Positions 2,853 through 63,280 of a DNA stretch of 64,000 nt are shown piece after piece (the stretch's first letter is position 1; each line of letters opens with the position of its first letter). The notes below the pieces were generated by a model that made no database searches, was not told the origin of the DNA, and was given only the letters and a program-made list of their open reading frames with translations. The position numbers and the translations under genes were made by a program. The DNA lies in NCBI GenBank assembly GCA_964509425.1, contig CAZDWZ010000008.1:17011-81010 (forward strand), given 5' to 3'. This DNA is from an uncultured Bdellovibrionales bacterium. GTDB lineage: Bacteria; Bdellovibrionota_C; UBA2361; SZUA-149; CAZDWZ01.

Positions 2853-3764
2853 ATGAAGCGCCAACGAATACTCTCAGTACTACTTCTCAGTTTCGTCCTC
2901 GTGCAGCTCTCCGCTTGCTCGGGACGTGCTACCATCCCGGTCGGAGAAATTCCTCAAGCTCAGGTTCCCGATCTCGCGAAGCGAAAATCTACATTGAGCG
3001 CTGCGTATGGATATGCGCAGCAAAACGGCTACAGCGTCACTCACGATGCTCGGCAGGAAAAGCGTCTCCAATCCATGGTTGACCGGATGGCGCGCGCTGC
3101 AGGAGCGCAAGGATTTTCATATCCGGTCGTGCTCATTGATGCTGGAGAAGACGTAAACGCCGCAGCGATGAACGGCTCGGTAATCATGGTCTATCAAGGT
3201 CTTCTTAAGAGAGTGCGGAACGACGACGAACTCGCAACGATTATCGGCCATGAAGTGGCACACATAGTCACCAAACATCACGAAGACGATGGTGCAGAGG
3301 GTCGTGAAACGGCGGTCAGTATCGGAAGCTCACTCATTGGGCTCGCGGCTGGCGTCGGAGCGGCTGCGGCGGGCGCTGGATCAACCGCCTCAGGACTTGC
3401 AAGTGATCTCGGTGAAGGCGTGTCGGCAACAGTAGGAACGGGCGCATTTGTCCGCTCGTATGACCGCGATATGGAACGGGAAGCTGATCAAGTCGGTCTT
3501 ATGATTATGTCGAAGGCGGGTTATAACCCCGAGGCTGCAGTGGCCCTCTGGCAGCGTGCGGATGAAGTTTTCGGCGAAGGCGGAGGCGGTGGATCTTTCC
3601 TCAGCACACACCCGACCAGCTCAGATCGACTGGAACGAATCCAAGAAGCGATGCCGGTCGCAAAAAAGTATTTCGATGAATCCCGACATTCAAACCCGCT
3701 TCCGCTCGACAAAGATGTCGAGAAGCCTTCAAAGAAAAAGGCAAAGAACCGGAAGAAGAAATAA
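2853..3764 (+). CDS. M48-family zinc metalloprotease lipoprotein (YcaL/LoiP-like)
   Basis: Lipobox-like LSAC after a hydrophobic N-terminus, GHEVAHIVTKHH zinc motif, STHPTSSDRLERI C-terminal motif and a Lys-rich tail. Divergent from the other M48 gene. Confidence 0.85.
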   Translation: MKRQRILSVLLLSFVLVQLSACSGRATIPVGEIPQAQVPDLAKRKSTLSAAYGYAQQNGYSVTHDARQEKRLQSMVDRMARAAGAQGFSYPVVLIDAGEDVNAAAMNGSVIMVYQGLLKRVRNDDELATIIGHEVAHIVTKHHEDDGAEGRETAVSIGSSLIGLAAGVGAAAAGAGSTASGLASDLGEGVSATVGTGAFVRSYDRDMEREADQVGLMIMSKAGYNPEAAVALWQRADEVFGEGGGGGSFLSTHPTSSDRLERIQEAMPVAKKYFDESRHSNPLPLDKDVEKPSKKKAKNRKKK

Positions 3765-4439
3765 TTATTTAACCCCGGCGACAATCTCGAGCAGCTCTCC
3801 CAGCGTCGAGATGAGAGGAGCCTCCGTTTTTCGGAGGTGACTCTCCGCCTGGGCGCCGCCGGTAAATAGGACGGCATTTACTCCGAGAGCCTGCGCCAGC
3901 TCGAAATCATGAACGGTGTCTCCGATGAGGAGCATCTCGTCCGGCCGGATTCCAGAATCAATCCGGCCCTCATCCCGAAGCTTGGTAAGATGTGAATGTC
4001 CAAGGGGGATCTTCGAGGATCCTCCTTCACCGGGGTTTCCCGTGAACAGAATAAAATCTTCCGTCACGTTGCACATCGAGACACCTGTCTCGAGAAGAAA
4101 TTGCGGATGAGAGCTGAGAATGGAGTGAGAGATTCCAGTTTTTGCCAGTGCGCGAATGACGGATTCGGCGCCGTGATGCAGCCGGCAGATTTTGCGGCGT
4201 TCAAAGTATATTTCGTGGAACTTGGCCCCGAGAATCGTGAATTCGTCGGAGGGGATGTCCCGGCCGAGGAGAGCATTCCAGAAATCGCTCACCGGAATCG
4301 TAAAGTGTTCGCGGAAGTCGTCAAAGGAGAAAGTGGGAACGTGGTGATTGGCAGCGAGATCCCGGCAGATTTCCCAGCACAGCTCCGCGTCGTTAAATAG
4401 TGTGCCGTTCCAGTCCCAGATGATGTGCCGAATTTGCAT
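3765..4439 (-). CDS. HAD-superfamily hydrolase (phosphatase-like)
   Basis: HAD motif I read as IIWDWNGTLFND. Late motif LLIGDTVHDFELAQALGVNAV. Start placed at ATG 4439; the ORF opens at GTG 4511. Confidence 0.8.
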   Translation of the reverse strand: MQIRHIIWDWNGTLFNDAELCWEICRDLAANHHVPTFSFDDFREHFTIPVSDFWNALLGRDIPSDEFTILGAKFHEIYFERRKICRLHHGAESVIRALAKTGISHSILSSHPQFLLETGVSMCNVTEDFILFTGNPGEGGSSKIPLGHSHLTKLRDEGRIDSGIRPDEMLLIGDTVHDFELAQALGVNAVLFTGGAQAESHLRKTEAPLISTLGELLEIVAGVK

Positions 4440-10698: not shown

Positions 10699-10911
10699 GA
10701 GTATGATTTCCCAGAAAATCTTTTCTCAAACGTAATCTCCCGTTCATGCGAAGCCCCATCTTTTTCCATCGAAACCAGTTACCGTAACGTTGCGACCATG
10801 TCGCGACCGTTTGGCCCTTCAATCTTCAATCCGTGCTGTGTTTAGACTTTCTTCTCGAGCGACGTTCGCTGGCCCGGGAAAAGAGCAGTCCAGTTTTTAT
10901 GGAGGTGGCCA

Positions 10912-11467: not shown

Positions 11468-12667
11468 ATGAAAAAAATTTATTTAAAGAATGGACGCGAC
11501 TTCTCGGTGCGGAAACGGCATCCCTGGATCTTCTCCGGCGCGATTGCCCGAGGCGCGGATGCGGTCCAGGATGGTGAGCTCGTCCGGGTTTTGGCGGAGA
11601 ACAAAGATTTTCTGGGCTTGGGTCACTTCTCCAAAGCGGGGAGCATCGCGGTCAAGATGCTGAGCACCGAAGACGAGGAAATCAACTCCAGCTTCTGGAC
11701 GGGGAGGATCCGCAGCGCTGCTGAGTATCGGAAGCGGCTCGGGTTTCCAAATCAGACAACCAATGCTTTTCGGCTCGTCCACGGCGAAGGGGATAAGCTG
11801 CCCGGTCTCATTATCGATTACTACGCCGGAGTTTGCGTCCTTCAAGCCCAATCTCGTGGAATGTATCTCGCGAGAGAGGAACTCGCTCAGTCTCTCCAAG
11901 TAATCTTCGGCTCGGAGCTTCGAGCAGTGGTGGACCGGAGTGTTTCAGGAGCAAGCGCTTCCGAGGACGGCGACGACTCCAAACGAGGGAACTTTCTTTA
12001 CGGGGACATCGGAAAGACCGAGATTCTCGAGTCGAAAATTGTCTATGCCGTAGATTGCGTCCTCGGACAAAAAACTGGATTTTTTCTCGACCAGCGTGAC
12101 AACAGAAAAATTATCGGTGAGCTCTCCTCGAATAAAACCGTTCTGAACGCTTTTTGCTACAGCGGAGGTTTCTCGATGGCGGCACTTGCCGGAGGGGCGA
12201 AAAGTGTTACCTCCTTGGATAGCTCCGATAAGGCGCTCGCACTCCTCGAAGAAAATTTGCGTTTGAATGCTTCATCCGGAAATTTCCCGGGTGACGTTCA
12301 GCACACGACCATCGAAGAAGATTTTCTCAGATACATGCAGAACATCGAGTCACCGTTTGAGGTGATTGTTCTCGACCCTCCGGCGTTTGCGAAACACCGG
12401 AAGTCTCTCGACTCGGGGCTGAGGGGGTATAGGAGCATCAACACCGCGGCGCTCCGAGCGGTTACCCCTGGCGGTTTCCTCGCAACGTTCTCGTGCTCGC
12501 AGCTGGTCAGCCGGGATGATTTCAAAGGCGTCATCGCCGAAGCGGCTCTCAAAGCTGAGCGAGAGGTGCGAATTGTCAGGGAATTCCATCAAGCCCCCTG
12601 CCACCCCGTCGACCTCTTTCACCCCGAGGGAGAGTATTTGAAGGGCTTTCTGCTTCAGGTTCGTTGA
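11468..12667 (+). CDS. Class I SAM-dependent rRNA (cytosine-C5) methyltransferase, RlmI-like (PUA + MTase)
   Basis: N-terminus KNGRDFSVRKRHPWIFSGAI, AFCYSGGFS (SAM-binding loop) and VLDPPAFAK (motif IV). Start placed at ATG 11468. Confidence 0.85.
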   Translation: MKKIYLKNGRDFSVRKRHPWIFSGAIARGADAVQDGELVRVLAENKDFLGLGHFSKAGSIAVKMLSTEDEEINSSFWTGRIRSAAEYRKRLGFPNQTTNAFRLVHGEGDKLPGLIIDYYAGVCVLQAQSRGMYLAREELAQSLQVIFGSELRAVVDRSVSGASASEDGDDSKRGNFLYGDIGKTEILESKIVYAVDCVLGQKTGFFLDQRDNRKIIGELSSNKTVLNAFCYSGGFSMAALAGGAKSVTSLDSSDKALALLEENLRLNASSGNFPGDVQHTTIEEDFLRYMQNIESPFEVIVLDPPAFAKHRKSLDSGLRGYRSINTAALRAVTPGGFLATFSCSQLVSRDDFKGVIAEAALKAEREVRIVREFHQAPCHPVDLFHPEGEYLKGFLLQVR

Positions 12668-12803
12668 CGCGAGGGGGATAAACTCCGTCGGGTCTAAGAT
12701 AATTGGCGGCCCTAAGCTCATAACCGTCCATAACAATTGAAATTAGTGGCCGAATACCAGCAGAATAACTAAATAATAGGTTTTCAAAGGCCGTCTATTC
12801 TCA

Positions 12804-15245
12804 GTGAGCGGATATTCACTCATCTCTGAAGTTCTGAAGCGTTTCTCGCGATTCCGGCGGGTTAACCTCCTTTTGTCGCTGCTCGCCCCCTTGTTGCTGC
12901 TCGCTCTCGCCGTTTTGCTCGCTCAAAGCGACCTTTTGAAAGCCCCCTTTCTTCTTCTCGCCGGAGCCGGGTTCGGACTCCTCGTCGTAATTCTGGTTCG
13001 TGAGGCGAGAGGTTTGTTCGCGCCGGTGAAGCTCCCCGAGGCGGCAGCCTTCGTCGATGAAAAGCTAGAAGGAAAGGAAAGATTCCTGACCCTCGCTTCC
13101 GTTCAAGACCGCGAGCTTCCCGCGAAAGAGCTCGCTCTCATCGAGGAACAGGCAGACTCTCTCGCGGGACGGTTTAACCTCACTCAAGATGCGCCGTTTG
13201 AGCTTCATCGTTCTGCGCGAGTCTCGGCGGTGCTTTCTCCGGTCCTTCTCGGACTCTTACTCTTGTTACTCGTCGCTCCTTGGAAAGAAGAGGAAATTAG
13301 ACTTCCAAAGTCGGAAGAATCGCTGAAGGCGCCTGAAGCCAACGCCATTCGAGAGCTCGTTGAACAAAGTCCCGATCTCCCCGAACCGCTCAAGGATTCA
13401 CTGAATACTCTGGCGGATGCCGTAGAGGAACAGGGCTTGAAGTCCGAAGAGGTTTCGCAGCAGCTGGAAGAGCTCGAGAGCGATGTGAAAGAAGTTGAAG
13501 AAAAAATCGAGCAGCAGAATCAGGAAGTGAAGCCGGAGGACGAGAAGACGGAAGCAAAGCGTCCCGAGACGAGATCGGATTCAAAAGACCCCGGCGATCC
13601 AAATGCAAAGCTTCCGCGATCGGATAGCCCGGACGATTCGAAGGAAAGGAAACAGCCGGAAGAGAAGCAGCAATCCGAAGAGAAAAAATCAGAAACGCAA
13701 AAACACGAAGGGAAAAAAGGATCCGAGGAGAAATCCGCCGACAAGAAGTCTGAGGAGAAAAAATCCGAAGAGGAGAATTCCGCGAAGAAAGAGGAACAAG
13801 GCAAAGAAGAGAAGGAAGAAAAGAAGCAGCCGAGTTCTGAACAACAACCGGGAGGTTCCGAGAGCTCGGAGCAGCAAGGCGGAGACGGAAAGAAACAAGA
13901 ATCTTCCGATCAGACCGGTGAGCAGCAGAAGAACGACCAAGGCACCGAAGAGAAAGGTCAGAAGGAAAACTCGGGCGAAAAACAAGAAGCTCCAGGAGAG
14001 AAAAATTCCGAAGACAAACCATCCGGAGATCAAGCTCAGCAAACCGAGCCGAAGGGAGAACAACAAGATGATCCGAAGAAGGATCAGACTGGTGTCGGCG
14101 AAGGAAAGGGCAAGGGTAGCTCGGGCGACAAGAAGGAGCAGAAAGGCGAAACCCAATCCGGCAGTGACGATCGCGGCGCAAAAGAAGGAGACGCCAAGAA
14201 CCAACAAAAGGAAGGGAGTCAGTCAGGATCTGATTCCGGGCAGCAAGACAGCCAAGAAGGAAAGAAAGGCCCGAAACCCGGCGACAAACAGGAAGAAGGT
14301 GCTGAAGGCTCGGGAAAATCTCCCGACGGGAAAAAAGATTCCGGCAAAAAAGATTCTAAAACTGGAGATGCAAAGTCTCAGCTCGAAAACGTTAAAAGCC
14401 GGCTCGAAGAGCTGAAAGATAAATCGTCTGAAGAGCAGAATGCCGAAGGGAAAGAAGGCTCTCAGCCAAGCGAGCAAGGAAAACAGGAAGACAAACCCCG
14501 AAAACAGCCGCAGTCCGGAAAAAGCCCGTCAGAAGATAAACAATCTCCGGGAGAAAAAGGCGAGAAGGGCGAGAAGGGAGAAAAAGGCGAGAAAGGCGGT
14601 AAGAAGCCCGACGAAAAATCCGGCGAGAAGCAAGACAAAGGGCAGAGCGGAAAGCAGCAAGAGAAGTCGGAAGGTCAGGAAAAGGGCGAGTCCGAACAGG
14701 GTTCGCAGCCTGGGGAGAAGCCGGGAAGTAAATCCGAGAAAGGCGAGAAAGGTGAGCGCGGTGAAAAGGGACAGAAGTCCGATAGACCCGCAGACTCTGC
14801 AAAGGACGGCTCCAATCAGTCCGAGCAGCAGAGCAAAGATATGCAAGGAAAGCGCCCCGCAAACGAGGGGAAGAACGAAGCAAAAGATGTCGGTGATGAC
14901 TCCGACTCCGATGTCGCTCCGATGGATCCGAAAGGCAAAGACACGAGCAAGGCCGCTGAGAAACGGCCCGTACCAAGCGATGAAGGAGAGCGCCCCGGAC
15001 CGTTTGGCGGCGGAGATGAAGGTATTCTGCAAGAGAAGGATAGATCGGTAAGCTCTGTTGCGATTCCGCAGGAGGAAAAGATTGTGGTGCGAGATCTCGG
15101 ACAGTCGGATGGCAAGCTTTACAAAAATCCGAATCAGGCAAAGGCGAAAACAGGACTTGATGCCGTAGCTTTTGAGAAGCCGAAGGCGGAAGTCGCGGAG
15201 TCGTCGCAGCCGATTCCGGTGGAGTACCGCGATCTTCTGCGATAG
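12804..15245 (+). CDS. Membrane protein with a ~570-aa K/E/S/G/Q/D low-complexity region (DUF4175-like by context and C-terminal motif)
   Basis: Three hydrophobic helices lie in the first ~165 aa. A long polyampholyte stretch follows, including GEKGEKGEKGEKGGK. The C-terminus is SSQPIPVEYRDLLR. It lies directly upstream of the MoxR/vWA cluster. Confidence 0.7.
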   Translation: MSGYSLISEVLKRFSRFRRVNLLLSLLAPLLLLALAVLLAQSDLLKAPFLLLAGAGFGLLVVILVREARGLFAPVKLPEAAAFVDEKLEGKERFLTLASVQDRELPAKELALIEEQADSLAGRFNLTQDAPFELHRSARVSAVLSPVLLGLLLLLLVAPWKEEEIRLPKSEESLKAPEANAIRELVEQSPDLPEPLKDSLNTLADAVEEQGLKSEEVSQQLEELESDVKEVEEKIEQQNQEVKPEDEKTEAKRPETRSDSKDPGDPNAKLPRSDSPDDSKERKQPEEKQQSEEKKSETQKHEGKKGSEEKSADKKSEEKKSEEENSAKKEEQGKEEKEEKKQPSSEQQPGGSESSEQQGGDGKKQESSDQTGEQQKNDQGTEEKGQKENSGEKQEAPGEKNSEDKPSGDQAQQTEPKGEQQDDPKKDQTGVGEGKGKGSSGDKKEQKGETQSGSDDRGAKEGDAKNQQKEGSQSGSDSGQQDSQEGKKGPKPGDKQEEGAEGSGKSPDGKKDSGKKDSKTGDAKSQLENVKSRLEELKDKSSEEQNAEGKEGSQPSEQGKQEDKPRKQPQSGKSPSEDKQSPGEKGEKGEKGEKGEKGGKKPDEKSGEKQDKGQSGKQQEKSEGQEKGESEQGSQPGEKPGSKSEKGEKGERGEKGQKSDRPADSAKDGSNQSEQQSKDMQGKRPANEGKNEAKDVGDDSDSDVAPMDPKGKDTSKAAEKRPVPSDEGERPGPFGGGDEGILQEKDRSVSSVAIPQEEKIVVRDLGQSDGKLYKNPNQAKAKTGLDAVAFEKPKAEVAESSQPIPVEYRDLLR

Positions 15246-15272
15246 CGAAGAACATGGGGCAGAGCAGCATTA

Positions 15273-15516
15273 CTCTCAGTCTCAGTCTCAGTCTCTGTCT
15301 TGGTCTCTATTTCGATTCTCTGTCTCGGTCTTGATTTCTCAGTCTCTGCCTCTACCTCGGTGTTTTGTTGACGGAGACGGAGACGGAGCGGGGGAGATAG
15401 AGATGGAGGCAGAGAGCGAGTAAAGAGATTGAGACTGAGAGTTGAGATAGAGACCGAGACCAAGACTGAGACTGGGATGGAGCCTGAGACGGAGACTGAG
15501 AATTGAGACTGAGGCT
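15273..15516. repeat. Long imperfect inverted repeat (hairpin) built from degenerate hexamers, CTCAGT-type on the left arm and GAGACT-type on the right arm
   Basis: Complementary blocks keep register: 15277-15287 with 15464-15474, 15297-15310 with 15447-15466, and 15343-15352 (tctctgcctc) with 15406-15415 (gaggcagaga). The centre is near 15361-15372. Confidence 0.8.
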
Positions 15517-15601
15517 AATCGCGGACCAGAGAAAGCTGACCAAAGCTTCCGCCCTGTGATAACACTGCGGCTTTCGATGAGTAATTAGGAGGATCACAGA
15601 G

Positions 15602-16609
15602 ATGACCCAAACCACGGGTGCTGAAAGGCTCCAGCAAGAGGTGGAGGAGTTTCGCGAACATTTTCGGGCTGTGGAGCAGGAAGTTGCTCGAGCAATCGTG
15701 GGAATGAACGAGGTCGTGCAGTTTACGCTCGCGGCATTGTTCGCGGGTGGTCACGTCCTTCTCGAAGGCGCACCAGGACTTGGGAAAACTCTCCTTATCA
15801 AATCCATCGGGGATGCACTGGGACTGACCTTTCACCGGATTCAGTTCACCTCCGACCTCATGCCCAGTGATATCACTGGAACTCAAGTGCTCACGGAAGA
15901 TGAGAACGGGCGGAGACGTTTCGTTTTTCAACAAGGACCAATCTTCGCAAATATCGTGCTCGCCGATGAAGTAAATCGTGCCGGACCAAAAACTCAGTCT
16001 GCGCTCTTAGAAGCGATGGAAGAAAAACAAGTGAGCACGCTCGGCGTCTCCCGCCCGCTCCCACAACCATTTTTCGTGCTTGCAACTCAGAATCCGATCG
16101 AGCTGGAAGGAACGTATCCTCTTCCAGAAGCGCAGCTTGATCGATTTCTTTTCAAGCTCCTCGTGCCGCTTCCCTCCAGCAACGAGTTGAAGGAGATCCT
16201 GGCCCGAACGACCGGAGGTGTTCGCGTTACTATCGAACGAATTTTCCCTGCGGAGAAAAGTGCAGAGACATTGCTTCGAATGCGTGAGCTCGTCCGCCGG
16301 GTTGTCGTCGCATCGCCGCTTCAAGACGCTATCGTCGGCACCATGTTCGCGCTGACTCCCGGAACTGAGCAGTGCACCGATCGGGTGAAAGATTACGTCC
16401 GATTCGGTCCGGGTCCTCGAGGAGCGCAGTCCGTCCTCCTTGCCGCGAAGGTGTTCGCGCTTCTCGACAATCGACTCAATCTTTCCTACCGGGATATCAA
16501 GCAGGCCCTCGTCCCCGCGCTCAGGCACCGCATCATTCTCAACTATCAGGCAGAAGCCGAAGGAGTTACGACGGATCAGCTCATTCAAGAAGTCAGCGAC
16601 GCGTCGTGA
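15602..16609 (+). CDS. MoxR-like AAA+ ATPase
   Basis: Walker A LLEGAPGLGKT, Walker B LADEVNRA, and VLATQNPIELEGTYPLPEAQLDRF, typical of MoxR/RavA-type ATPases. Confidence 0.93.
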   Translation: MTQTTGAERLQQEVEEFREHFRAVEQEVARAIVGMNEVVQFTLAALFAGGHVLLEGAPGLGKTLLIKSIGDALGLTFHRIQFTSDLMPSDITGTQVLTEDENGRRRFVFQQGPIFANIVLADEVNRAGPKTQSALLEAMEEKQVSTLGVSRPLPQPFFVLATQNPIELEGTYPLPEAQLDRFLFKLLVPLPSSNELKEILARTTGGVRVTIERIFPAEKSAETLLRMRELVRRVVVASPLQDAIVGTMFALTPGTEQCTDRVKDYVRFGPGPRGAQSVLLAAKVFALLDNRLNLSYRDIKQALVPALRHRIILNYQAEAEGVTTDQLIQEVSDAS

Positions 16610-16613
16610 GGTT

Positions 16614-17489
16614 ATGCAAGATCCATTCATTGGACCATTTTTCCGCCGCCTAGAACGACTCCGGGTGAGAACCCGGCGTTCTACATTGGGCACGCGGCAG
16701 GGATCGCACCTCTCATTGAGAAGAGGACAAGGTCTGGAGTTTTCTGATTACCGGCAATACTCAGCCGGCGACGATTTCCGGCATATCGATTGGAATGTCT
16801 ACGGCAGGACCGATCGAGTCTACGTGAAGCAGTTTCGGGCGGAGCACAATCTTGAAGTTGTCGTCCTGCTCGACGGAAGCGCATCGATGGGGCTTCCGGA
16901 GAAAGAAGGGAAATTCGACCTCGCGCGGAATATCGCTTTATCCCTCGGCTATGTTGCGCTTTCAGACGGCGACACCGTGCAGTTTTCCGTTCTCGGTCAC
17001 AAAAATACTCCGAGATTTTTCGGTCCGGCTTCCTTTCCTCGCGCGCAGGAAGAGCTCCTTCGTATAACTCCCGCCGGTAATTTTTCGCTTCGATCTGAAA
17101 TGCGAGCGGCGGTCGCCGGGCAAAAGCACCCGGCTCGATGTTATCTCATCTCCGATTTTTTGATGCCGCACGAAGAACAGATTGAATCTCTCGACTTTCT
17201 TCGAGCCAAAAATTTCGACATTGCGGTGATTCAAATAATCGCCCCCTCGGAACTGTCTTTAGAGGTTTCGAAGATAGGAACCATGGTCGATGTAGAAACC
17301 GGAGAGGAGATCGAGCTCATCCTCGATTCGTCATCGGTGCAGGAATACGCGTACGAGCTCGGAAACCACGTCGAAAAGCTCGAGCAGTTTTGCAAGAAGA
17401 CTGGAATTCAACATTTGGTTCTCTCGAGTTCCGAGAGCCTTTCCGAGATCGTGCTGAATAAATTTCCTCGTGCAGGATTACTGCAATGA
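16614..17489 (+). CDS. DUF58-family protein (vWA-like partner of MoxR)
   Basis: GQGLEFSDYRQYSAGDDFRHIDWNVYGRTDRVYVKQF is the DUF58 signature. Start placed at ATG 16614, 5 nt after the moxR stop; the ORF opens at 16440 inside moxR. Confidence 0.85.
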   Translation: MQDPFIGPFFRRLERLRVRTRRSTLGTRQGSHLSLRRGQGLEFSDYRQYSAGDDFRHIDWNVYGRTDRVYVKQFRAEHNLEVVVLLDGSASMGLPEKEGKFDLARNIALSLGYVALSDGDTVQFSVLGHKNTPRFFGPASFPRAQEELLRITPAGNFSLRSEMRAAVAGQKHPARCYLISDFLMPHEEQIESLDFLRAKNFDIAVIQIIAPSELSLEVSKIGTMVDVETGEEIELILDSSSVQEYAYELGNHVEKLEQFCKKTGIQHLVLSSSESLSEIVLNKFPRAGLLQ

Positions 17490-30230: not shown

Positions 30231-33200
30231 TCAGAGCTCGGGTGGAAGGGGACTTATTTTCAGTTTCGAGGCGAGCGCGAGGGAGTTTCGGAGAAACTCT
30301 TTCGATTGCCCGTCCGTCAACTTCAAACCCCGAAGCACGGCGGAGTACTCTGTAAGAAGGTTTTGATCTCTTTTGAAATCCTCGTCACGAGTGAGTCCAG
30401 GGAAGCGCGACTCGAGTCCAAGGACGAGTGTCTTGAAGGCTTCAATGCGGGCGGCAGCGCTTTCGGCGTCGCCGCTCGATACGGCTTCGGATGCGGCGAA
30501 AAGCACCCGCGACAACTCGAACGACAATCGGTTCTTGATGACATTAAGCTCGAGACGTCCAAAGGCGTTATTCGCATCCGGAACACTGAGAACGGTGTTC
30601 GATGTTCCGTTTCGGAGATAAATGAGATCTTTGTATTTTAAGCTTGCCGCCGCGATCCGACCCGGACCATTCGCCACGACGTCCAGCAATATGACGTGAG
30701 TGTCACCGGCGCGGAAGCTCGGGATGAGAACCTGTATCCCGTCGTCGTCGGTGTCTCTATCAGCCACGATACCAAGATCTTTCTGGACTCTCTGATCGAT
30801 ACTTTGCTCAACTTCCTTTGCTGCGTCTACTTGTTTGGAAGTGAGCTTCGAAGATCCGAGAACCTGAACCAGCTTTACTCCCGGGGCCAACTTGATATTC
30901 AGTCGCAGAGCGCGTGCTACCGTCGAGCTCACGACTGCGATTTCTTTCTTCACAATCTCCGCCGCCTCACCGACGTTCGAGATTGTTCGGCGGGTTCCCT
31001 GTCCAGCAAGAGCCAGTCGATCGTGATTCTTGCCGGTAGCAGTTGTTCCGATTCCAATGACACTCACCGGAATGCCATCAACCGAGCTCCTATGCGCGAC
31101 TTTCTCTAAAGCTTCGATGTCGGCCGTGAGAGCGCCGGGAGCGAGGAGTAGCACTTCGTTGCTTCCAAGAATATTGTCGGTTTCATCCGGCTCGCTCACT
31201 CGGGCGACCGCGCTTTCTACCGCATCGCTCAGTGACGGGACGGTGCCTGCTCCGTTGGTCTGTTGTGCGATATTCTGGAGAGCAACCGTGAGCTGCCCGT
31301 GGAGAAACTGCTCGGGTTTAAGATACGTCGTCGATGCCGGACCAACCAATGTCACTGAGAATCGGTCGCCGATTTCCTTGGCGCGCTGAAAGGCGAGTAA
31401 AACCTCTCGCACCAGAGACCGCTCTTCCACTGGAGCTCGAGAGTCTCTCAAGTCAGCGACAATGGCGATGTTCATTGGAGGCCGACGGGTCCCCCGCTGC
31501 TCTGCGCCCTGGATTCCGATCTGAACTAGGCTTCGAGTTGGAGCGGATATGGATGGTGCGCTGCTACTGACATAAAGAGAGAGCGCCGAGTCCCTGGGAG
31601 CGTCATACGGCTGCCAGTCTTTCCTCGCGGCGTCGTGCAGCCGAAGGGGTGTCGAAGAAAGCGCATTGAGAAAGCTTCGATCGGCGCCCTGCAAGAGCAG
31701 CTGAAGTCGGCGCAGTCCAGCGTCACCGGGAATATACGTGTTCTCCCAATACCCTCGAGCTTCCTGGAACGAGACTCCGTCTACCTGCGTAAGCTGTTTT
31801 AGGAAGCTCTCTACCGCGGTGGTTTGTGCAGGTGATGTTTGTGGAACGAGCGATGAGAGATCAGATGATTTGCTGAAAACCGCCGAGAGGTTTTTGCCCG
31901 CGTTGACGCTTACGACCGGGACCAGCTTTTCGTAACGATTCAATAGTTGCGCTGAGAGCTGATTTGAAGCTGCGACAAGTGCTGAAGCATCGGGCGACAA
32001 ATTTTCGGTCGCTGCCGATTCCTCACCCAGAGCCATGCGGCGTTGCAGATCTCCAGTGGAGGCGATGAGCCTTCCCAGCTTATCCTCCAGCTTGCCGGGA
32101 GTGCCACGAATGCCGTCCTCGCCGACAATCCATCCGTCGATGTCGACGACTTTCCGTGATCCATCCGCTTGTCGAATCGCGAGCTTCGTGAGGCGGAAGA
32201 GAGCGCGTGAATCAGACTCGGACCCTTGTGCCGCCGCGATGAGCCGTGCGTCTTTTAACTCGATCTGTTCGCCATTTGCGCCAGTGATTGGGCCGTCCAA
32301 CTTAAACACCACCGGATACGGAGTCCCGTCAACCGGCGCATTTACCCCCGTGAGCAGCGTAACCGATACTGCGTCTCCGGGCGTTATCACTCGAGGGCTT
32401 GCGGGGGCTGTCGAAGTTCTGGAAGGCGCGGGTGTGTTCCGGCGCTTCAGGTTCGTCTTCTGACCAGCGCTTTCGGCCGGTGCATCCTCGAGTGAATCCT
32501 TCGCCTCGGGAATGGCGTCTCGATCAGCGCCTTCCGCGAATTCAATGATCCCGCTGTTCGACTCCTCGGTTGCGAATTTTCCGGTCGCAATAACTCGTTC
32601 GTCCACGTCGCTGTCCCGGAGGAAGCGTGCCGGAGGAGGAGAAAGAGGAGGAGAAGGAGGAGGAGGAGGGAGAGACGCCTCGTCGTTGTATCCGAATGCA
32701 TCGAGAGTATCCGGCCCGTTTAAGGCGCGCGATTGCTCGAGTGCCGTAGCTTCTGGCTGCTGTTTGAGTGACGCGGCGAGGCTATCGACTTCGGTTTGAA
32801 CGTTATCAAATTTGTTCACGACGGATTCGAGAACCGCGGCGACTTTTGTCTTATGATCCTTTAGCTCCTCCGATGTTTTTGCTGCAAGCTCGTTCATCTC
32901 GCCTGACTTCTGCCGTTCGGCGTCTATTTCTTGCTTAAAGGCTTGGATAAGATCGGCGTATTGCTCCCCAGCCGGAGCAACCGCTGCCTGCTGTCGTGAA
33001 CGGACCGGCATCCAGTCCTTTGAGCGTTGAGCAGTGACGAGAACCATCGCCATGGTTCCCACAGCGATAATTCGGAGAGGGGTGAAGAGCTGCTGAATAT
33101 TTTCGCGATCAGGAAGCTTCTCAAATCCACGTTTCAGGATCGCCGGAAGATTCCGAAGGTTCAGTCCATCGAGCTGCCGTCGGTTTACGATATCGACCGC

Positions 33201-38060: not shown

Positions 38061-38156
38061 GGCTTCTCTGTCTCGAAAAAACGAACAATTCCTATAGCCG
38101 TGTGCAAGGGAATCTTCAAGGCGACGGGATTCCGGCTAATGCCTCAGTATGAAATT

Positions 38157-38389
38157 TCTCCGGTGCTCTGGTGCTCTGTGGTTCGTTATCAATAAAAAAA
38201 TGAACCACAGAGCACCAGAGCACTGGAGAAAAGGCGAAAAAGGTCCCAAATTCAAACTGAGACACCGGCACCCACTCGATGTCTGCTCTGTGCCTCTGCG
38301 CCTCTGTGGTTCGATAGGCACCGCAAACCAGGTCGCAGCGACGCGGAGATTCGCTATCCTATTGAACCACAGAGACACAGAGGCACGGA
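38157..38389. repeat. Four copies of a ~27-nt GAACCACAGAG-type REP-like element arranged as two inverted pairs
   Basis: Pair 1: 38157-38183 and 38201-38227 are reverse complements with 1 mismatch in 27 and a 17-nt A-rich loop. Pair 2: 38285-38311 and 38363-38389 have 4 mismatches (23/27) and a ~51-nt spacer. All four share GAACCACAGAGnnnCAGAGnCACnGAG. Confidence 0.85.
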
Positions 38390-38423
38390 GAAATAACTGG
38401 ATTTTGCCCGTTGGGCTCAAGGG

Positions 38424-59976: not shown

Positions 59977-60579
59977 ATGGCTCTTGAAGCTTCGCAGCTA
60001 AACGCAAACCCCTTTTTGCAATTTCAAGAATGGCTCGACGCGGCAAAGGCCTCGTCCGGAATGAGCTATCCCAACGCCGTCTGTCTTTCGACCGTGACGC
60101 CCGACGGGGATCCCGATGGCCGGATTGTTCTCTTGAGAGGGCTGAGCGAAAACGGACTCGATTTTTATACGAACAGCGAATCCTCAAAGGGAGTTTCGTT
60201 GGAGGCCTCCCCCAGGGCCGCGATGACTTTCTACTGGGACAAGCTCCAGCGGCAAGTGCGAGTTCGCGGCAGCGTGACCAAAGTCACAACGGAAGAATCC
60301 GACGCCTATTTCGCGTCGCGGCCGAGAGAGTCGCAGATCGGTGCCTGGGCCTCGCAGCAAAGCCGACCGCTCGAAAATCGTGCAACTTTCGAAGGCAGGT
60401 TGAGGGATTATGAGCGGCAATTTGAGGGCGCTCAAATAGCTCGCCCCCCGCACTGGTTCGGATTTCGCCTCATTCCTCAAGCTTTTGAGTTCTGGCAGGA
60501 ACAGCCGTTTCGACTTCATGACCGCTTTCTCTACACGCGCCACGGGTCAGTTTGGGAGATCCAACGTCTCTACCCCTGA
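59977..60579 (+). CDS. pdxH: Pyridoxamine 5'-phosphate oxidase
   Basis: NPFLQFQEWL, RIVLLRG, FYTNSESSKG, SRPRESQIGAWASQQS, EFWQEQPFRLHDR...RLYP. Confidence 0.93.
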   Translation: MALEASQLNANPFLQFQEWLDAAKASSGMSYPNAVCLSTVTPDGDPDGRIVLLRGLSENGLDFYTNSESSKGVSLEASPRAAMTFYWDKLQRQVRVRGSVTKVTTEESDAYFASRPRESQIGAWASQQSRPLENRATFEGRLRDYERQFEGAQIARPPHWFGFRLIPQAFEFWQEQPFRLHDRFLYTRHGSVWEIQRLYP

Positions 60580-60850
60580 CTCCCATCCGTCGCCGCACGA
60601 AAAAGTAAACCCACGCTTGCTTCACGTACCAAGGAAGTATAAGGTATTTTTTTGCTCGATTGCTCTCTCAAACAAATCAATATCGTTGGTAGCAACTCGT
60701 CCACGCATCTTGCAGTTTCTCCATTAGCTGGTCCTTCTTGCCGTTAGCGGCGACTCAATAAACGAATCTTTCTCTTGTTTCTCTTTCGTTTTCGCTGCGG
60801 ATTAAGCTTTTTAGTAAACGCAAGATTCACGTCGGCCGGGTGTTCTCCTT

Positions 60851-60930
60851 ATCCATGGGTCTAGCAGGAAGGCTTGCCGTGCCGTCTTTTGCAGCGCCAT
60901 CTAGAGTTCTCTTTCTGGACCAATGGAACC
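60851..60930 (+). repeat. Hairpin module copy A (ATCCATGGGyCTA ... GGACCAATGGAACC)
   Basis: Shares a 13-nt 5' block and a 14-nt 3' block with copy B. The two blocks are imperfect reverse complements of each other (tccatgggtct / ggaccaatgga). Confidence 0.6.
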
Positions 60931-61387
60931 AAAGTCGTTTTGTTCATCGTTTGGAAGGGAGCACAGCTTCCGCGTGATTTAGTTCACCGGTCTCTCCCGT
61001 CCCCCCAGGAGATTTTTCTCAATACTTCCCTACGCTTTTACGCAATACATCTTCGCCTTCTCCAAACTTTTCTCGGCTTTGCCGATTTTAGTTTGGCCTT
61101 CGGGCCAAGTTGATGGCCTACGGGCTGCTCGCCGCCCTTGAGGCGGCCCCGGCATGCTTGTTTCTGAAACTTGTTGATTGCTGGATCTGTTCGCTCTTGC
61201 GTAACGGAACATGAGACTAACTCCTATTTGACTTCATCAAGATTATCTTCACCGATTTATTTAGATGAACACCTTTAGGAATTTTTTGGTTCCGGAGGTC
61301 CATGTATTTCCTCCTTTCATTTCTGCTGATCGCTTCCGCTGCCTTTCCTACTTTCCTGCACTCGTCTTTCTTACACTACCTCCTTCG

Positions 61388-61432
61388 CTGTGTAGTCACT
61401 CTGTGTAGTCACTCTGTGAAGTCACTCTGTGG
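61388..61432. repeat. 13-bp tandem repeat, 3.5 units (CTGTGTAGTCACT)
   Basis: 61388-61400 and 61401-61413 are identical. 61414-61426 has one change. A partial ctgtgg follows. The reverse complement contains CCACAGAG/CACAGAG cores like the 38.2-kb elements. Confidence 0.85.
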
Positions 61433-61978
61433 CCTCAATCGCTCTCGAAAGTATTTCAGTCGTCCGCTTCGCCGTGTCTGTTGCGTTCGGACCTTCCAAA
61501 TTCAGCTCTGTTCCAGCATTTCTAATACCGACCCATTCCAATTCTCGCTTTCAGCGCATCTGTGTTTCGTCCTGTGGCTTCTTTGCGACAATTTTTGTTT
61601 CCTCATTGCATTTTGCTTTCACACGTTTCACCTCGTTGTTCCCGGTTTCGCGGTGCGTTCGTTGCCCGCGTGTCGCGCGTAAGATTTCCTGCGGGAAAGC
61701 GGCGTGTCATTAAAAAAAATTTGGTATCCGCAACTACCAACCATCTCTAAGATTCTCTTTCCGTCACGCGCAAATTTTGGGACCTGACGTGAATTTTTTT
61801 TCATTCACGACTTGTCACAAAAATTTAACAGAGATAGGAAACTGCTTCGCACGTTGTTCTCTTCCGCCTCGCGGTCCTGAATTTTCGGCCTTTTTCTGCA
61901 GTTTCTCTGAGAAACACCTCAGAAATCATCGCTCAGAAATTTCGTCGCGTGGCTAAATCTTGAAACGGGTAAGACCAT

Positions 61979-62032
61979 ATCCATGGGCCTACAGGGGAGA
62001 GCTGCCTCTCCATCTTTAGGACCAATGGAACC
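61979..62032 (+). repeat. Hairpin module copy B
   Basis: atccatgggcctacaggggagagctgcctctccatctttaggaccaatggaacc. It contains an inner perfect ggagag-ctgc-ctctcc stem and the same terminal blocks as copy A. Confidence 0.6.
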
Positions 62033-62498
62033 GATTAGGTATTTTTATGGTTTTTTCGCCTCTCTGATTTCCTCCAACTTTTCAGCATTCAAATTTCAGT
62101 AAGTGAAACTCTCACTTTGAACTGACGCTTGTTTCACCGAATTATCGGTCGAAATTTCTTCTCCACGCTCGCGATCTGCGGATGTGCGGCTCACGATTGG
62201 ACGAACGTTTCCTCTTGGAAGCGTCGTGCACTCGTGCGCCTCACTTCCCCCTCACATCCGAACCTGGGGAAGTTCCCGAGAGGCGTACGAAAGATGTCCC
62301 AGTGGGCTCAAACCAAGGAGGACGCAGCGATGCGTATTCGAGCTCCCCCGGCTTAATCGCCGGGAGTGCGGTCGGCACCGGCGTTTTCGCCGGCCGCACT
62401 CTGTCTTCTGTCTGAGTCAACCCAACCGTTGGGGGGCTGGCCCGGTCGTTGCACCGGTCCGGCCCCCTGTCTCATCCGTTCACGGAGAAACTGCAGTC

Positions 62499-62654
62499 AT
62501 GCGCAACCTCGTCAACTTCAGCCCCGGCGTCGCCGGCGGCTGCTTCACGAAGGCGAACCTCGTCAACCACAACCCGGCGCACAACGACGGCGGCGGCGGG
62601 CACGCCGGCCACGGCCTCGGCCACGACCCGGGCCACATGACGGCCGGCGGCTGA
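62499..62654 (+). CDS. 52-aa His/Gly-rich micro-protein with 100% G/C-ending codons
   Basis: ATG 62499 with GGAGA 10 nt upstream, TGA 62652-62654. Product is MRNLVNFSPGVAGGCFTKANLVNHNPAHNDGGGGHAGHGLGHDPGHMTAGG. All 51 sense codons end in G or C (read one by one). No family recognised. Confidence 0.5.
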   Translation: MRNLVNFSPGVAGGCFTKANLVNHNPAHNDGGGGHAGHGLGHDPGHMTAGG

Positions 62655-63280
62655 TCAAGGGCGCGACCGAGCCGAGCGTACGCATGAGCTGACAAGCTCT
62701 GCTACTAACCCACCACCGGACGGCCTCATCACGGCATAGCTTGTACCGAGCTACACCTCGAGACCGTCTCGAAGTGTGCTCCTACAGCATATTGCCGGTT
62801 GGGCTAGCAGCGGTGCGTACGCAAGGCGGCGGGCCTGGGAATCTTTCGAAGTAAGCGACCGGCCGACGCGCAGCACCTTTGTGCGCGTCGGCATCGCCAG
62901 ACTTCGGTTCCTAGGTCCGTCACTTTTGTGGTGGCGTATTTTGCCGGATCTCTTCGTTGAAAGATTCCGCCTTCGCCAAGGCTTCGGCGGACAAGCTCCT
63001 TTTGCTGAAGCTACTTCGGGGAATTTCGCAGGAGTAAACTCCGCTCCTCGCCGCTCTTTCGCCTCGACCTCCGCCAAAATACCCCACCAACTTCGACTCT
63101 TATTTTCTATTTTCCAATCGCGAGAGCGATCTCGCCCTGGATGGTCTTGCCGCTGCCGCTGTCGCGGCTCTTTTCTTTTGATTTAAGCACGCCTCTCAGA
63201 AATTTTCGTATAACCCTCGACGTGGTCCTTGTTGGCCGCGATGGCGTTTATTTTTTCGATAGTTTTTGGAATGCGGTTTT

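Follow-up and report, generated by a model that had tools for sequence, protein, structure and literature searches.

What is a palindrome of some 250 nt, built of hexanucleotide units, doing between two genes of a tightly packed cluster, and how did it get there? The imperfect palindrome (positions 15269-15519) lies between an upstream gene and moxR on the 64-kb stretch of DNA analyzed here, which comes from an uncultured Bdellovibrionota-like bacterium and is called the window below. To answer the question, its structure, its surroundings and the corresponding spacers of related genomes were compared.

The locus and the architecture of the hairpin

The palindrome, hereafter the hexamer hairpin, resides in a spacer of 356 nt (15246-15601) with a + strand gene on either side. 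It takes up most of this gap, which is unusually long for a co-directional cluster, as the initial annotation of the sequence had pointed out. The following features were assigned:

12804-15245, + strand, upstream gene for an 813-aa low-complexity (K/E/S/G/Q-rich) protein (ORF list, translation)
15246-15268, + strand, 5′ flank of the spacer, with ATGGGGC at 15254-15260 in common with the 87%-identity relative L164 (by-eye comparison)
15269-15360, + strand, left (5′) arm of about 14 degenerate TCTCNN units (sequence, repeat finding, TRF, fold)
15361-15390, + strand, apex, a weakly paired U-rich / (ACGGAG)3 segment (MFE helices)
15371-15519, + strand, right (3′) arm of about 22-24 degenerate NNGAGA-type units (sequence, repeat finding, TRF, fold)
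15461-15490, + strand, 30-nt bulge of the MFE structure, made up of extra right-arm hexamer units (MFE helices)
15520-15601, + strand, unstructured 3′ flank of the spacer (sequence)
15602-16609, + strand, moxR (AAA_3 ATPase), first gene of the cluster (Pfam AAA_3, E 2.3e-61)

The N-terminus of the 813-aa protein is hydrophobic, and the C-terminal sequence (...QPIPVEYRDLLR) is conserved. Neither this protein nor the products of the genes at the same position in relatives matched a Pfam family. The C-terminal motif recurs in the relatives L002/L003, and the 3′ end of the gene is conserved in L164/L165/L168. On the other side, the cluster has the order moxR-DUF58-BatA-VWA (Pfam). The hairpin starts 24-28 nt past the stop codon of the upstream gene and leaves free the Shine-Dalgarno sequence of moxR (AGGAGG, 15587-15592), which is located 9 nt 5′ of the ATG.

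A separate Logan assembly of SRR13608702 was identical, base for base, to positions 12404-15590 of the window, although the two assemblies, which thus agree on the sequence and length of the hairpin, were probably built from the same reads. Moreover, the arms are only about 77% complementary (blastn self-hit). A fold-back assembly artefact could therefore be ruled out. A protein-coding tract was rejected as well: the ORFs crossing the hairpin are frame-preserving by-products of the 6-nt period, one complement frame containing a TGA in each unit, and the gene caller did not report an ORF within the hairpin on the Logan contig. Searches of the whole window against Rfam at the gathering score gave no match, while a search of positions 14500-16500 at a permissive E-value yielded only mir-3914 at chance level (E 0.4). 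Blastn against plasmids gave a single, irrelevant match to a coding region.

The units of the left arm include TCTCAG (three times), TCTCTG, TCTTGG, TCTCTA and TTTCGA, those of the right arm GAGACT, GAGACG, GAGACC and GAGATA. The composition of the arms was as previously described, with 73% pyrimidines on the left (15275-15360; T37 C27 G15 A8) and 76% purines on the right (15371-15514). TRF disclosed period-6 arrays at 15274-15300 (TCTCAG, 4.5 copies, 95% matches) and at 15425-15513 (GAGACT, 14.5 copies), besides higher-order periods of 12, 25 and 30. The right arm exceeds the left one by about 55 nt, and the 30-nt bulge corresponds to a period-30 segmental duplication (TRF, 15431-15508).

Both arms run through the same succession of variant units, namely AG-TCTC, TG/AG-TCTT, GG-TCTC, TA-TYTC, a 7-mer, TG/AG-TCTC, GG/AA-TCTY, an 8/7-mer, AG/GC-TCTC, TG-CCTC and so on, with one additional GGTCTC unit and approximately 36 additional outer nucleotides on the right arm. 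Since the variant units are colinear, we concluded that an already heterogeneous array was duplicated in inverted orientation and that divergence and more slippage followed; the hairpin is not composed of two independent microsatellites. When viral contigs were scanned for (TCTCAG)3, 75 loci turned up, all of which were microsatellites of one orientation and none palindromic. Only two of them had a partner on the opposite strand within 500 nt, both in coding-looking sequence. Thus, the inverted arrangement is no trivial property of the TCTCAG unit. Neither a second cluster of the units (GAGACNGAGAC) nor another hexamer palindrome was detected within the 64-kb window, and no direct repeat or target-site duplication flanks 15269/15519. 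On these grounds, and because the inverted repeat constitutes the entire element, a MITE was dismissed.

The short, near-perfect arrays, such as (TCTCAG)4.5 with 95% matches, and the unequal arms as a sign of past slippage are what one would expect of a slippage-prone contingency tract, whose length variation in the population would tune the expression of the moxR operon in the style of phase variation. Most units are degenerate, however, which suppresses slippage, the length was equal in the two assemblies (probably from the same reads), and neither a promoter spacer nor a reading frame is touched by the repeats. We regard such a tract as very improbable.

Folding, strand asymmetry and expression signals

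For the + strand RNA of 15269-15519, a single stem-loop with bulges was predicted. Its stem counts about 99 pairs, of which 42 are G-C, 41 are A-U and 16 are G·U, and its terminal loop lies at approximately 15374-15377. Its minimum free energy (MFE) of -141.9 kcal/mol compares with -94 ± 5 kcal/mol for dinucleotide shuffles (z -9.7), none of 200 shuffles being as good. The - strand RNA (-105.8 kcal/mol, z -6.6) and the DNA fold (-56.2 kcal/mol, z -5.2) were also significant, so that the hairpin stood the comparison with shuffled dinucleotide controls, which had been suggested with the initial annotation, on both strands. Among 798 sliding windows of 240 nt covering the + strand of the 64 kb, it was the most stable one (-134, the mean being -77 with an sd of 10.7). 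As a stricter null model, the units within the arms were permuted, which gave -125 ± 6 kcal/mol; the real order was better than 299 of 300 permutations. The fact that permuted units still reached -125 kcal/mol indicates that the stability is mostly due to simple TCTC/GAGA complementarity. Nevertheless, the z-score of -9.7 and the effect of unit order corroborate the assumption that the arms are colinear and form a single, very long stem-loop with bulges, and they speak against a random simple repeat.

In the MFE structure, 15297-15320 paired with 15437-15460 and 15343-15354 with 15404-15415. Two of the in-register blocks proposed beforehand (15297-310 with 15447-66 and 15343-52 with 15406-15) were recovered in this way. 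The third one (15277-87 with 15464-74) represents an alternative register, the outer left arm (15274-15296) being paired with 15491-15514 in the MFE structure.

The mismatches between the arms were distributed unevenly. Counted in one chosen register, 13 of them (T·G or G·T) allow wobble pairing in the + strand RNA, as against three C·A/A·C mismatches, which would allow it only in the - strand RNA (binomial p = 0.021). It is because of this G·U excess on the sense strand that the + strand folds better than the - strand by 36 kcal/mol. The excess fits with selection for pairing of the sense transcript or with C-to-T deamination of the non-template strand, and both readings would imply that the hairpin is transcribed in + direction. 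Transcription-associated deamination could bring about the excess without any selection on RNA pairing.

The significance of the DNA hairpin (z -5.2) and the presence of six GTCTC and nine GAGAC cores, which are oppositely oriented on the two arms, might speak for an element that acts as DNA: a cruciform or H-DNA, a site at which replication or transcription pauses, or a protein-binding array with GTCTC/GAGAC every 6 bp. H-DNA requires long homopurine mirror repeats. The longest homopyrimidine and homopurine runs of the hairpin comprise only 6 nt and 8 nt, respectively, under the window median of 9 nt per 244-nt stretch, and its symmetry is inverted, not mirror. Hence, the triplex potential once ascribed to the tract was not upheld. 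Furthermore, the 6-bp period is out of step with the helical repeat, the advantage of the + strand RNA comes from G·U pairs, which are meaningless in a DNA cruciform, and the adjacent genes do not encode a candidate binding protein (Pfam). A role at the DNA level is therefore most unlikely in our opinion.

Within 15000-15800, a consensus scan revealed neither a sigma-70-like promoter nor an intrinsic terminator, the latter on either strand. The hairpin itself was discarded as an intrinsic terminator, as a stem-plus-U-tract site is missing; GCTAATCGCGGACC comes after the hairpin. The lack of an intrinsic terminator would be in line with a Rho-dependent attenuator, in which the left arm would serve as a transient rut site that is masked once the right arm has been transcribed, resulting in conditional termination before moxR. 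The left arm is indeed C-rich and G-poor (27 C, 15 G), contains many UC dimers and is ribosome-free, given the start of the hairpin shortly after the stop codon. On the other hand, it would be quickly sequestered and the element is not conserved. This purely inferential scheme is hardly to be expected.

The spacer in related genomes and the FamB family

When 185,579 species genomes and the JGI metagenomes were searched for MoxR, the best identities were about 70-72%, and none of the 160 moxR loci from these scans exhibited a comparable inverted repeat upstream. Closer relatives (87, 84, 80, 78, 77 and 76% identity) were obtained from a protein index. The order of the low-complexity gene and moxR was kept in all of the latter. 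The compared loci had the following MoxR identities and spacers:

L163/L164, 87%, 79 nt
L165-L167, 84%, 87 nt
L168/L169, 80%, 175 nt
L246/L247, 78%, 257 nt
L251, 78%, 138 nt
L245, 77%, 33 nt
L248-L250, 76%, 133 nt
L252, 76%, 48 nt
L002 and L003, 71%, about 80 nt and 155 nt

In the 13 syntenic loci sampled (71-87% MoxR identity, about nine distinct spacers), the hexamer hairpin was absent, and none of their spacers included hexamer arrays. Absence from all relatives with the same gene order had been named in the initial annotation as an observation against the element, and this is what we found. The result argues that the hairpin is not a conserved regulatory element or an ancestral regulatory device, and a young insertion is most likely. 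Its boundaries were set by eye with the anchors ATGGGGC after the stop codon and CCCTGTGATAAC at about 15551, a cheap-gap global alignment of the spacers being fragmented and uninformative.

Among the compared spacers, only those of the window (z -10.6) and of L246 (z -6.8) showed significant structure. The L246/L247 spacer contains a 90-nt hairpin of a dispersed family that we named FamB, the spacer of L248-L250 a decayed FamB and that of L251 an unrelated, perfect 19-bp hairpin. Further long hairpins were found in other operon spacers of L245 and L246. These operon spacers of the clade are places where palindromes land or grow. That the clade's spacer repeatedly hosts other hairpins, and that a similar family with microrepeat arms exists in the same window, had previously escaped notice.

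The absence from all relatives found is also what would be expected if the hairpin were a neutral by-product, i.e., if a microsatellite palindrome had arisen through template switching during replication and slippage, in a spacer that tolerates it and without selection for any function of the DNA or RNA. In agreement with this, the arms differ in length and their complementarity has already fallen to about 77%, the spacers of the clade vary strongly in length (33-257 nt) and content, and unit complementarity alone explains most of the folding energy. Yet the G·U bias of 13:3 on the sense strand suggests at least an asymmetry linked to transcription. Long palindromes are usually unstable in bacteria, and persistence at about 25% divergence implies that this one has been tolerated over some time. 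The occurrence of some hairpin in this spacer in several lineages is a hint of structural demand. We consider a neutral origin a real possibility, if a tentative one.

FamB is characterized by the core CCTCYGYGGTT / AACCRCRGAGG and by arms of 8-9-nt CTCYGYG-type microrepeats. In L246/L247, the arms are formed by three tandem units of about 9 nt (ACTCCGTGA AACTCCGTGG CCTCCGTGGTTA ... TAACCACGGAGTCCACGGAGTTTCACGGAGT). The following copies were located:

L246, 1070-1160
Window, 38155-38231 and 38286-38390, two copies between folB and an unknown gene, on the - strand
L168 (80% relative), 767-844 and 16997-17088, two copies in 21 kb with perfect arms of 33-40 nt

When five copies were aligned, 20 of the 30 pairs proved to have changed on both sides without loss of pairing. 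The covariance model R1 built for FamB recovered all copies with 55-97 bits; the family is not contained in Rfam.

Could the hexamer hairpin be a hypertrophied member or derivative of this mobile, REP/MITE-like family, which was inserted and then enlarged by slippage? FamB is dispersed (window, L168, L246) and occupies the very same spacer in two relatives. Both elements share the architecture of a short tandem unit array, a loop and the complementary array; like FamB, the hexamer hairpin has arms of tandem CTCNG-type microrepeats and resides in a spacer of co-directional genes. The units are similar (TCTCTG and CTCTGYG). By alignment, CCTCGGTGTT flanking the apex resembles the FamB core CCTCYGTGGTT, and (ACGGAG)3 of the right arm resembles (CACGGAGN)3. 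In addition, the apex was the best non-family match to R1 in the window (15.7 bits, E about 0.07). This alignment, however, skips the core (GYGGTT...AACCRC), 34 core positions being replaced by a 41-nt insert, and its score derives from generic CUC/GAG stem pairs. The core-like CCTCGGTGTT is present on the left arm only, so that the pair CCTCYGYGGTT ... AACCRCRGAGG by the loop, found in FamB, does not occur on both arms. FamB also differs by its three units of 8-9 nt per arm, its near-perfect arms and its conserved core. The three closest relatives (87, 84 and 80%) do not contain an element in the spacer, and the hexamer hairpin has neither a target-site duplication nor a second copy in the 64 kb. 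Descent of the hairpin from an inserted FamB copy is rather unlikely for these reasons, and a common origin of the two, judged from the sequences, likewise seems doubtful.

Known repeats and the putative role of the hairpin

Several types of bacterial repeats are reminiscent of the hexamer hairpin. REP/BIME elements fold in the mRNA, shield upstream messages from 3′ exonucleases and give rise to differential operon expression (e.g., malE-malF). REPs are 20-40 nt in length, occur in hundreds of copies and possess a conserved head that is recognized by RAYT transposases. Like the REP/BIME/REPIN elements of Proteobacteria, the hexamer hairpin is an extragenic palindrome in a co-directional spacer at a lineage-specific location. 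It differs from them by its about 99 pairs, its microsatellite units and the lack of a second copy in the window, and with approximately 250 nt it lies far outside the size of a REP unit (20-40 nt). In cyanobacteria, STRR heptamers reportedly lengthen helix P12 of RNase P RNA, as described by Vioque in 1997. There too, both arms of an RNA helix consist of short tandem repeats or are lengthened by them, and the repeats are dispensable for function and lineage-specific, but the units are heptamers, which are located inside a structured RNA gene or dispersed in intergenic regions of a different phylum.

The closest described phenomenon is found in Xanthomonas, where tandem heptamer arrays occur in inverted pairs. 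Arrays of the heptamer GGGAATC occupy about 180 loci per genome, with 70-75 convergent (inverted) pairs in each genome that are mostly transcribed (Rehm et al. 2015, PMC4692102). According to the authors, the inverted pairs can form stem-loops or cruciforms, and the array lengths differ among related genomes while the type of pair is kept (PMC4692102). An intergenic array of short units, closely followed by an array of the same unit on the opposite strand, is also what TRF and the repeat finder detected in the hexamer hairpin. Unlike the latter, the Xanthomonas arrays consist of a G-rich heptamer that can give G-quadruplexes, and they exist at many loci; the TCTCNN/NNGAGA units do not contain G3 tracts, with the sole exception of GGGGG at 15391-15395. 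The hexamer hairpin was seen at one locus in the 64 kb, has much longer arms (about 14 and 22-24 units), is absent in the relatives found and stems from another lineage. In Geobacter metallireducens, 15-49 sites of five or four heptamers have been proposed to be regulator binding sites (PMC2700814). Sites with the consensus MTYCTGA x5 are mostly paired, and the legends draw fold-back alignments (PMC2700814). These paired tandem arrays have a unit resembling TCTCAG/CTGAGA, but they belong to a multicopy family and do not form 100-bp stems.

The reading that we favor, with a probability of about one half, is that of a lineage-specific palindrome which arose by inverted array duplication and slippage and whose action, if any, would be that of an RNA hairpin between cistrons. 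A heterogeneous hexanucleotide (TCTCNN) tandem array would have been duplicated in inverted orientation and slippage would afterwards have extended the right arm, in a spacer that seems to acquire differing hairpin elements time and again in the clade. Transcription from the upstream gene would run across the hairpin on the + strand, and the transcript may fold into the stem of about 99 pairs of double-stranded RNA. RNA stems of about 100 bp are expected to be cleaved by RNase III and/or to block 3′ exonucleases, as known from REP/BIME and RNase III substrates. The stem could thus serve as operon punctuation, i.e., as a substrate for RNase III, as a block to 3′ exonucleases and as an obstacle that slows the RNA polymerase. 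In this way, the abundance of the upstream message and its lifetime would no longer be coupled to those of the moxR-DUF58-batA-VWA message.

A role at the RNA level, as an intercistronic element or decoupler, is the most plausible physical effect of the hairpin. The lack of conservation counts against an important function. As the hairpin is not conserved, any uncoupling that it causes is of recent date and probably weak or almost neutral. Most likely, the hairpin acts at most as an RNA hairpin that separates two genes.

A more far-reaching idea, speculative and quite unlikely at present, is that uncultured Bdellovibrionota harbor an undescribed class of REP-like hairpins with arms of tandem microrepeats (CTCNG-type, 6-9 nt), which would recolonize particular spacers as modular operon punctuation. 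Such hairpins would grow by slippage while their arms stay complementary, and the hexamer hairpin of 250 nt would be a runaway member.

If the reading at the RNA level is true, the locus would represent a natural stem of about 100 bp, built of microsatellite units and situated between cistrons, and operon punctuation could arise quickly through slippage and inverted duplication. Elements of this kind disrupt short-read assemblies and give rise to spurious ORFs, and they could be used as strain markers. As a single, non-conserved locus whose role is inferred, the hexamer hairpin is of modest immediate significance. Together with FamB, it points to a still uncharacterized repertoire of palindromes with repeat arms in an uncultured lineage that is poorly sampled, and this wider set of microrepeat-armed hairpins in the uncultured Bdellovibrionota clade is the more interesting lead.

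Dispersed FamB hairpins and related microrepeats

In addition to the hexamer hairpin preceding moxR (an imperfect palindrome of TCTCNN/NNGAGA units), we detected members of FamB, a dispersed hairpin family with arms of CTCYGYG-type microrepeats, in the window as well as in loci of relatives (MoxR identities in brackets).

FamB hairpins
38155-38231, window: copy 1, in the interval separating folB from an unknown 527-aa gene (both genes on the minus strand)
38286-38390, window: copy 2, adjoining copy 1 in the same interval
767-844 and 16997-17088, L168 (80%): copies with perfect arms of 33-40 nt
1070-1160, L246 (78%): copy with perfect arms in the same length range
approximately 2685-2735, L249 (76%): decayed copy

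The arms within 38155-38390 are composed of 8-nt microrepeats in tandem (GTGCTCTG / CTCTGYGC) and the core of the window copies reads CTCTGTGGTTCG. The loop of the second copy harbors a 39-nt insert. Neither of the two window hairpins revealed an Rfam match.

The CTCTGTG motif of the FamB-type microrepeats was also found inside a tandem array of the 13-mer CTGTGTAGTCACT (3.4 units, 96% matches) at 61388-61431. The surroundings of this array (60.6-62.1 kb) are poor in ORFs, with a G+C content falling to 0.50 (60001-62000), and a 126-aa ORF located there gave no Pfam match.

Other repeats and structured regions

Further long hairpins, all of them unrelated, occur in moxR-operon spacers of three relatives.

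Spacer hairpins and a palindromic repeat in relatives
10728-10838, L245 (77%): long hairpin with 36-nt arms, moxR/DUF58 spacer
2247-2444, L246 (78%): long hairpin with 58-nt arms, moxR/DUF58 spacer
1171-1229, L251 (78%): perfect 19-bp hairpin, spacer between the low-complexity gene and moxR
91-117, 313-339, 425-451, 3460-3509, 3676-3725 and 3798-3829, L245: 27-nt palindromic repeat

The palindromic repeat (AGATTGCTTCGCTGCGCTCGCAATGAC) recurs at least six times over 4 kb, in both orientations, and has the appearance of a typical dispersed element of the REP-like kind.

In the window, successive 240-nt segments of 62100-63050 gave unusually stable folds for either strand (-104 to -120 kcal/mol versus a mean of -77). 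This stretch has no Rfam match; its ORFs are short and overlapping, and the single one tested could not be assigned to a Pfam family. The longest homopurine run of the window (32632-32675, 44 uninterrupted nt of the (GGA)n type) may lie within a gene; as a triplex candidate it far surpasses the hexamer hairpin.

The low-complexity gene upstream of moxR

12804-15245, window: low-complexity gene, with syntenic genes in L164 (87%), L165 (84%), L168, L245 and L249

In the window and the syntenic loci the gene product comprises 730-870 aa, starting with a hydrophobic N-terminus followed by a very long body rich in K, E, S, G and Q with (GEK)n repeats, and it belongs to no Pfam family. We read the C-terminal motif QPIP(V/P)EY(R/G/S)D(L/I)LR in the window copy and in two relatives with 71% MoxR identity (L002 and L003). 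Within the clade, the low-complexity gene seems to be a constant companion of the moxR-DUF58-BatA-VWA cluster.
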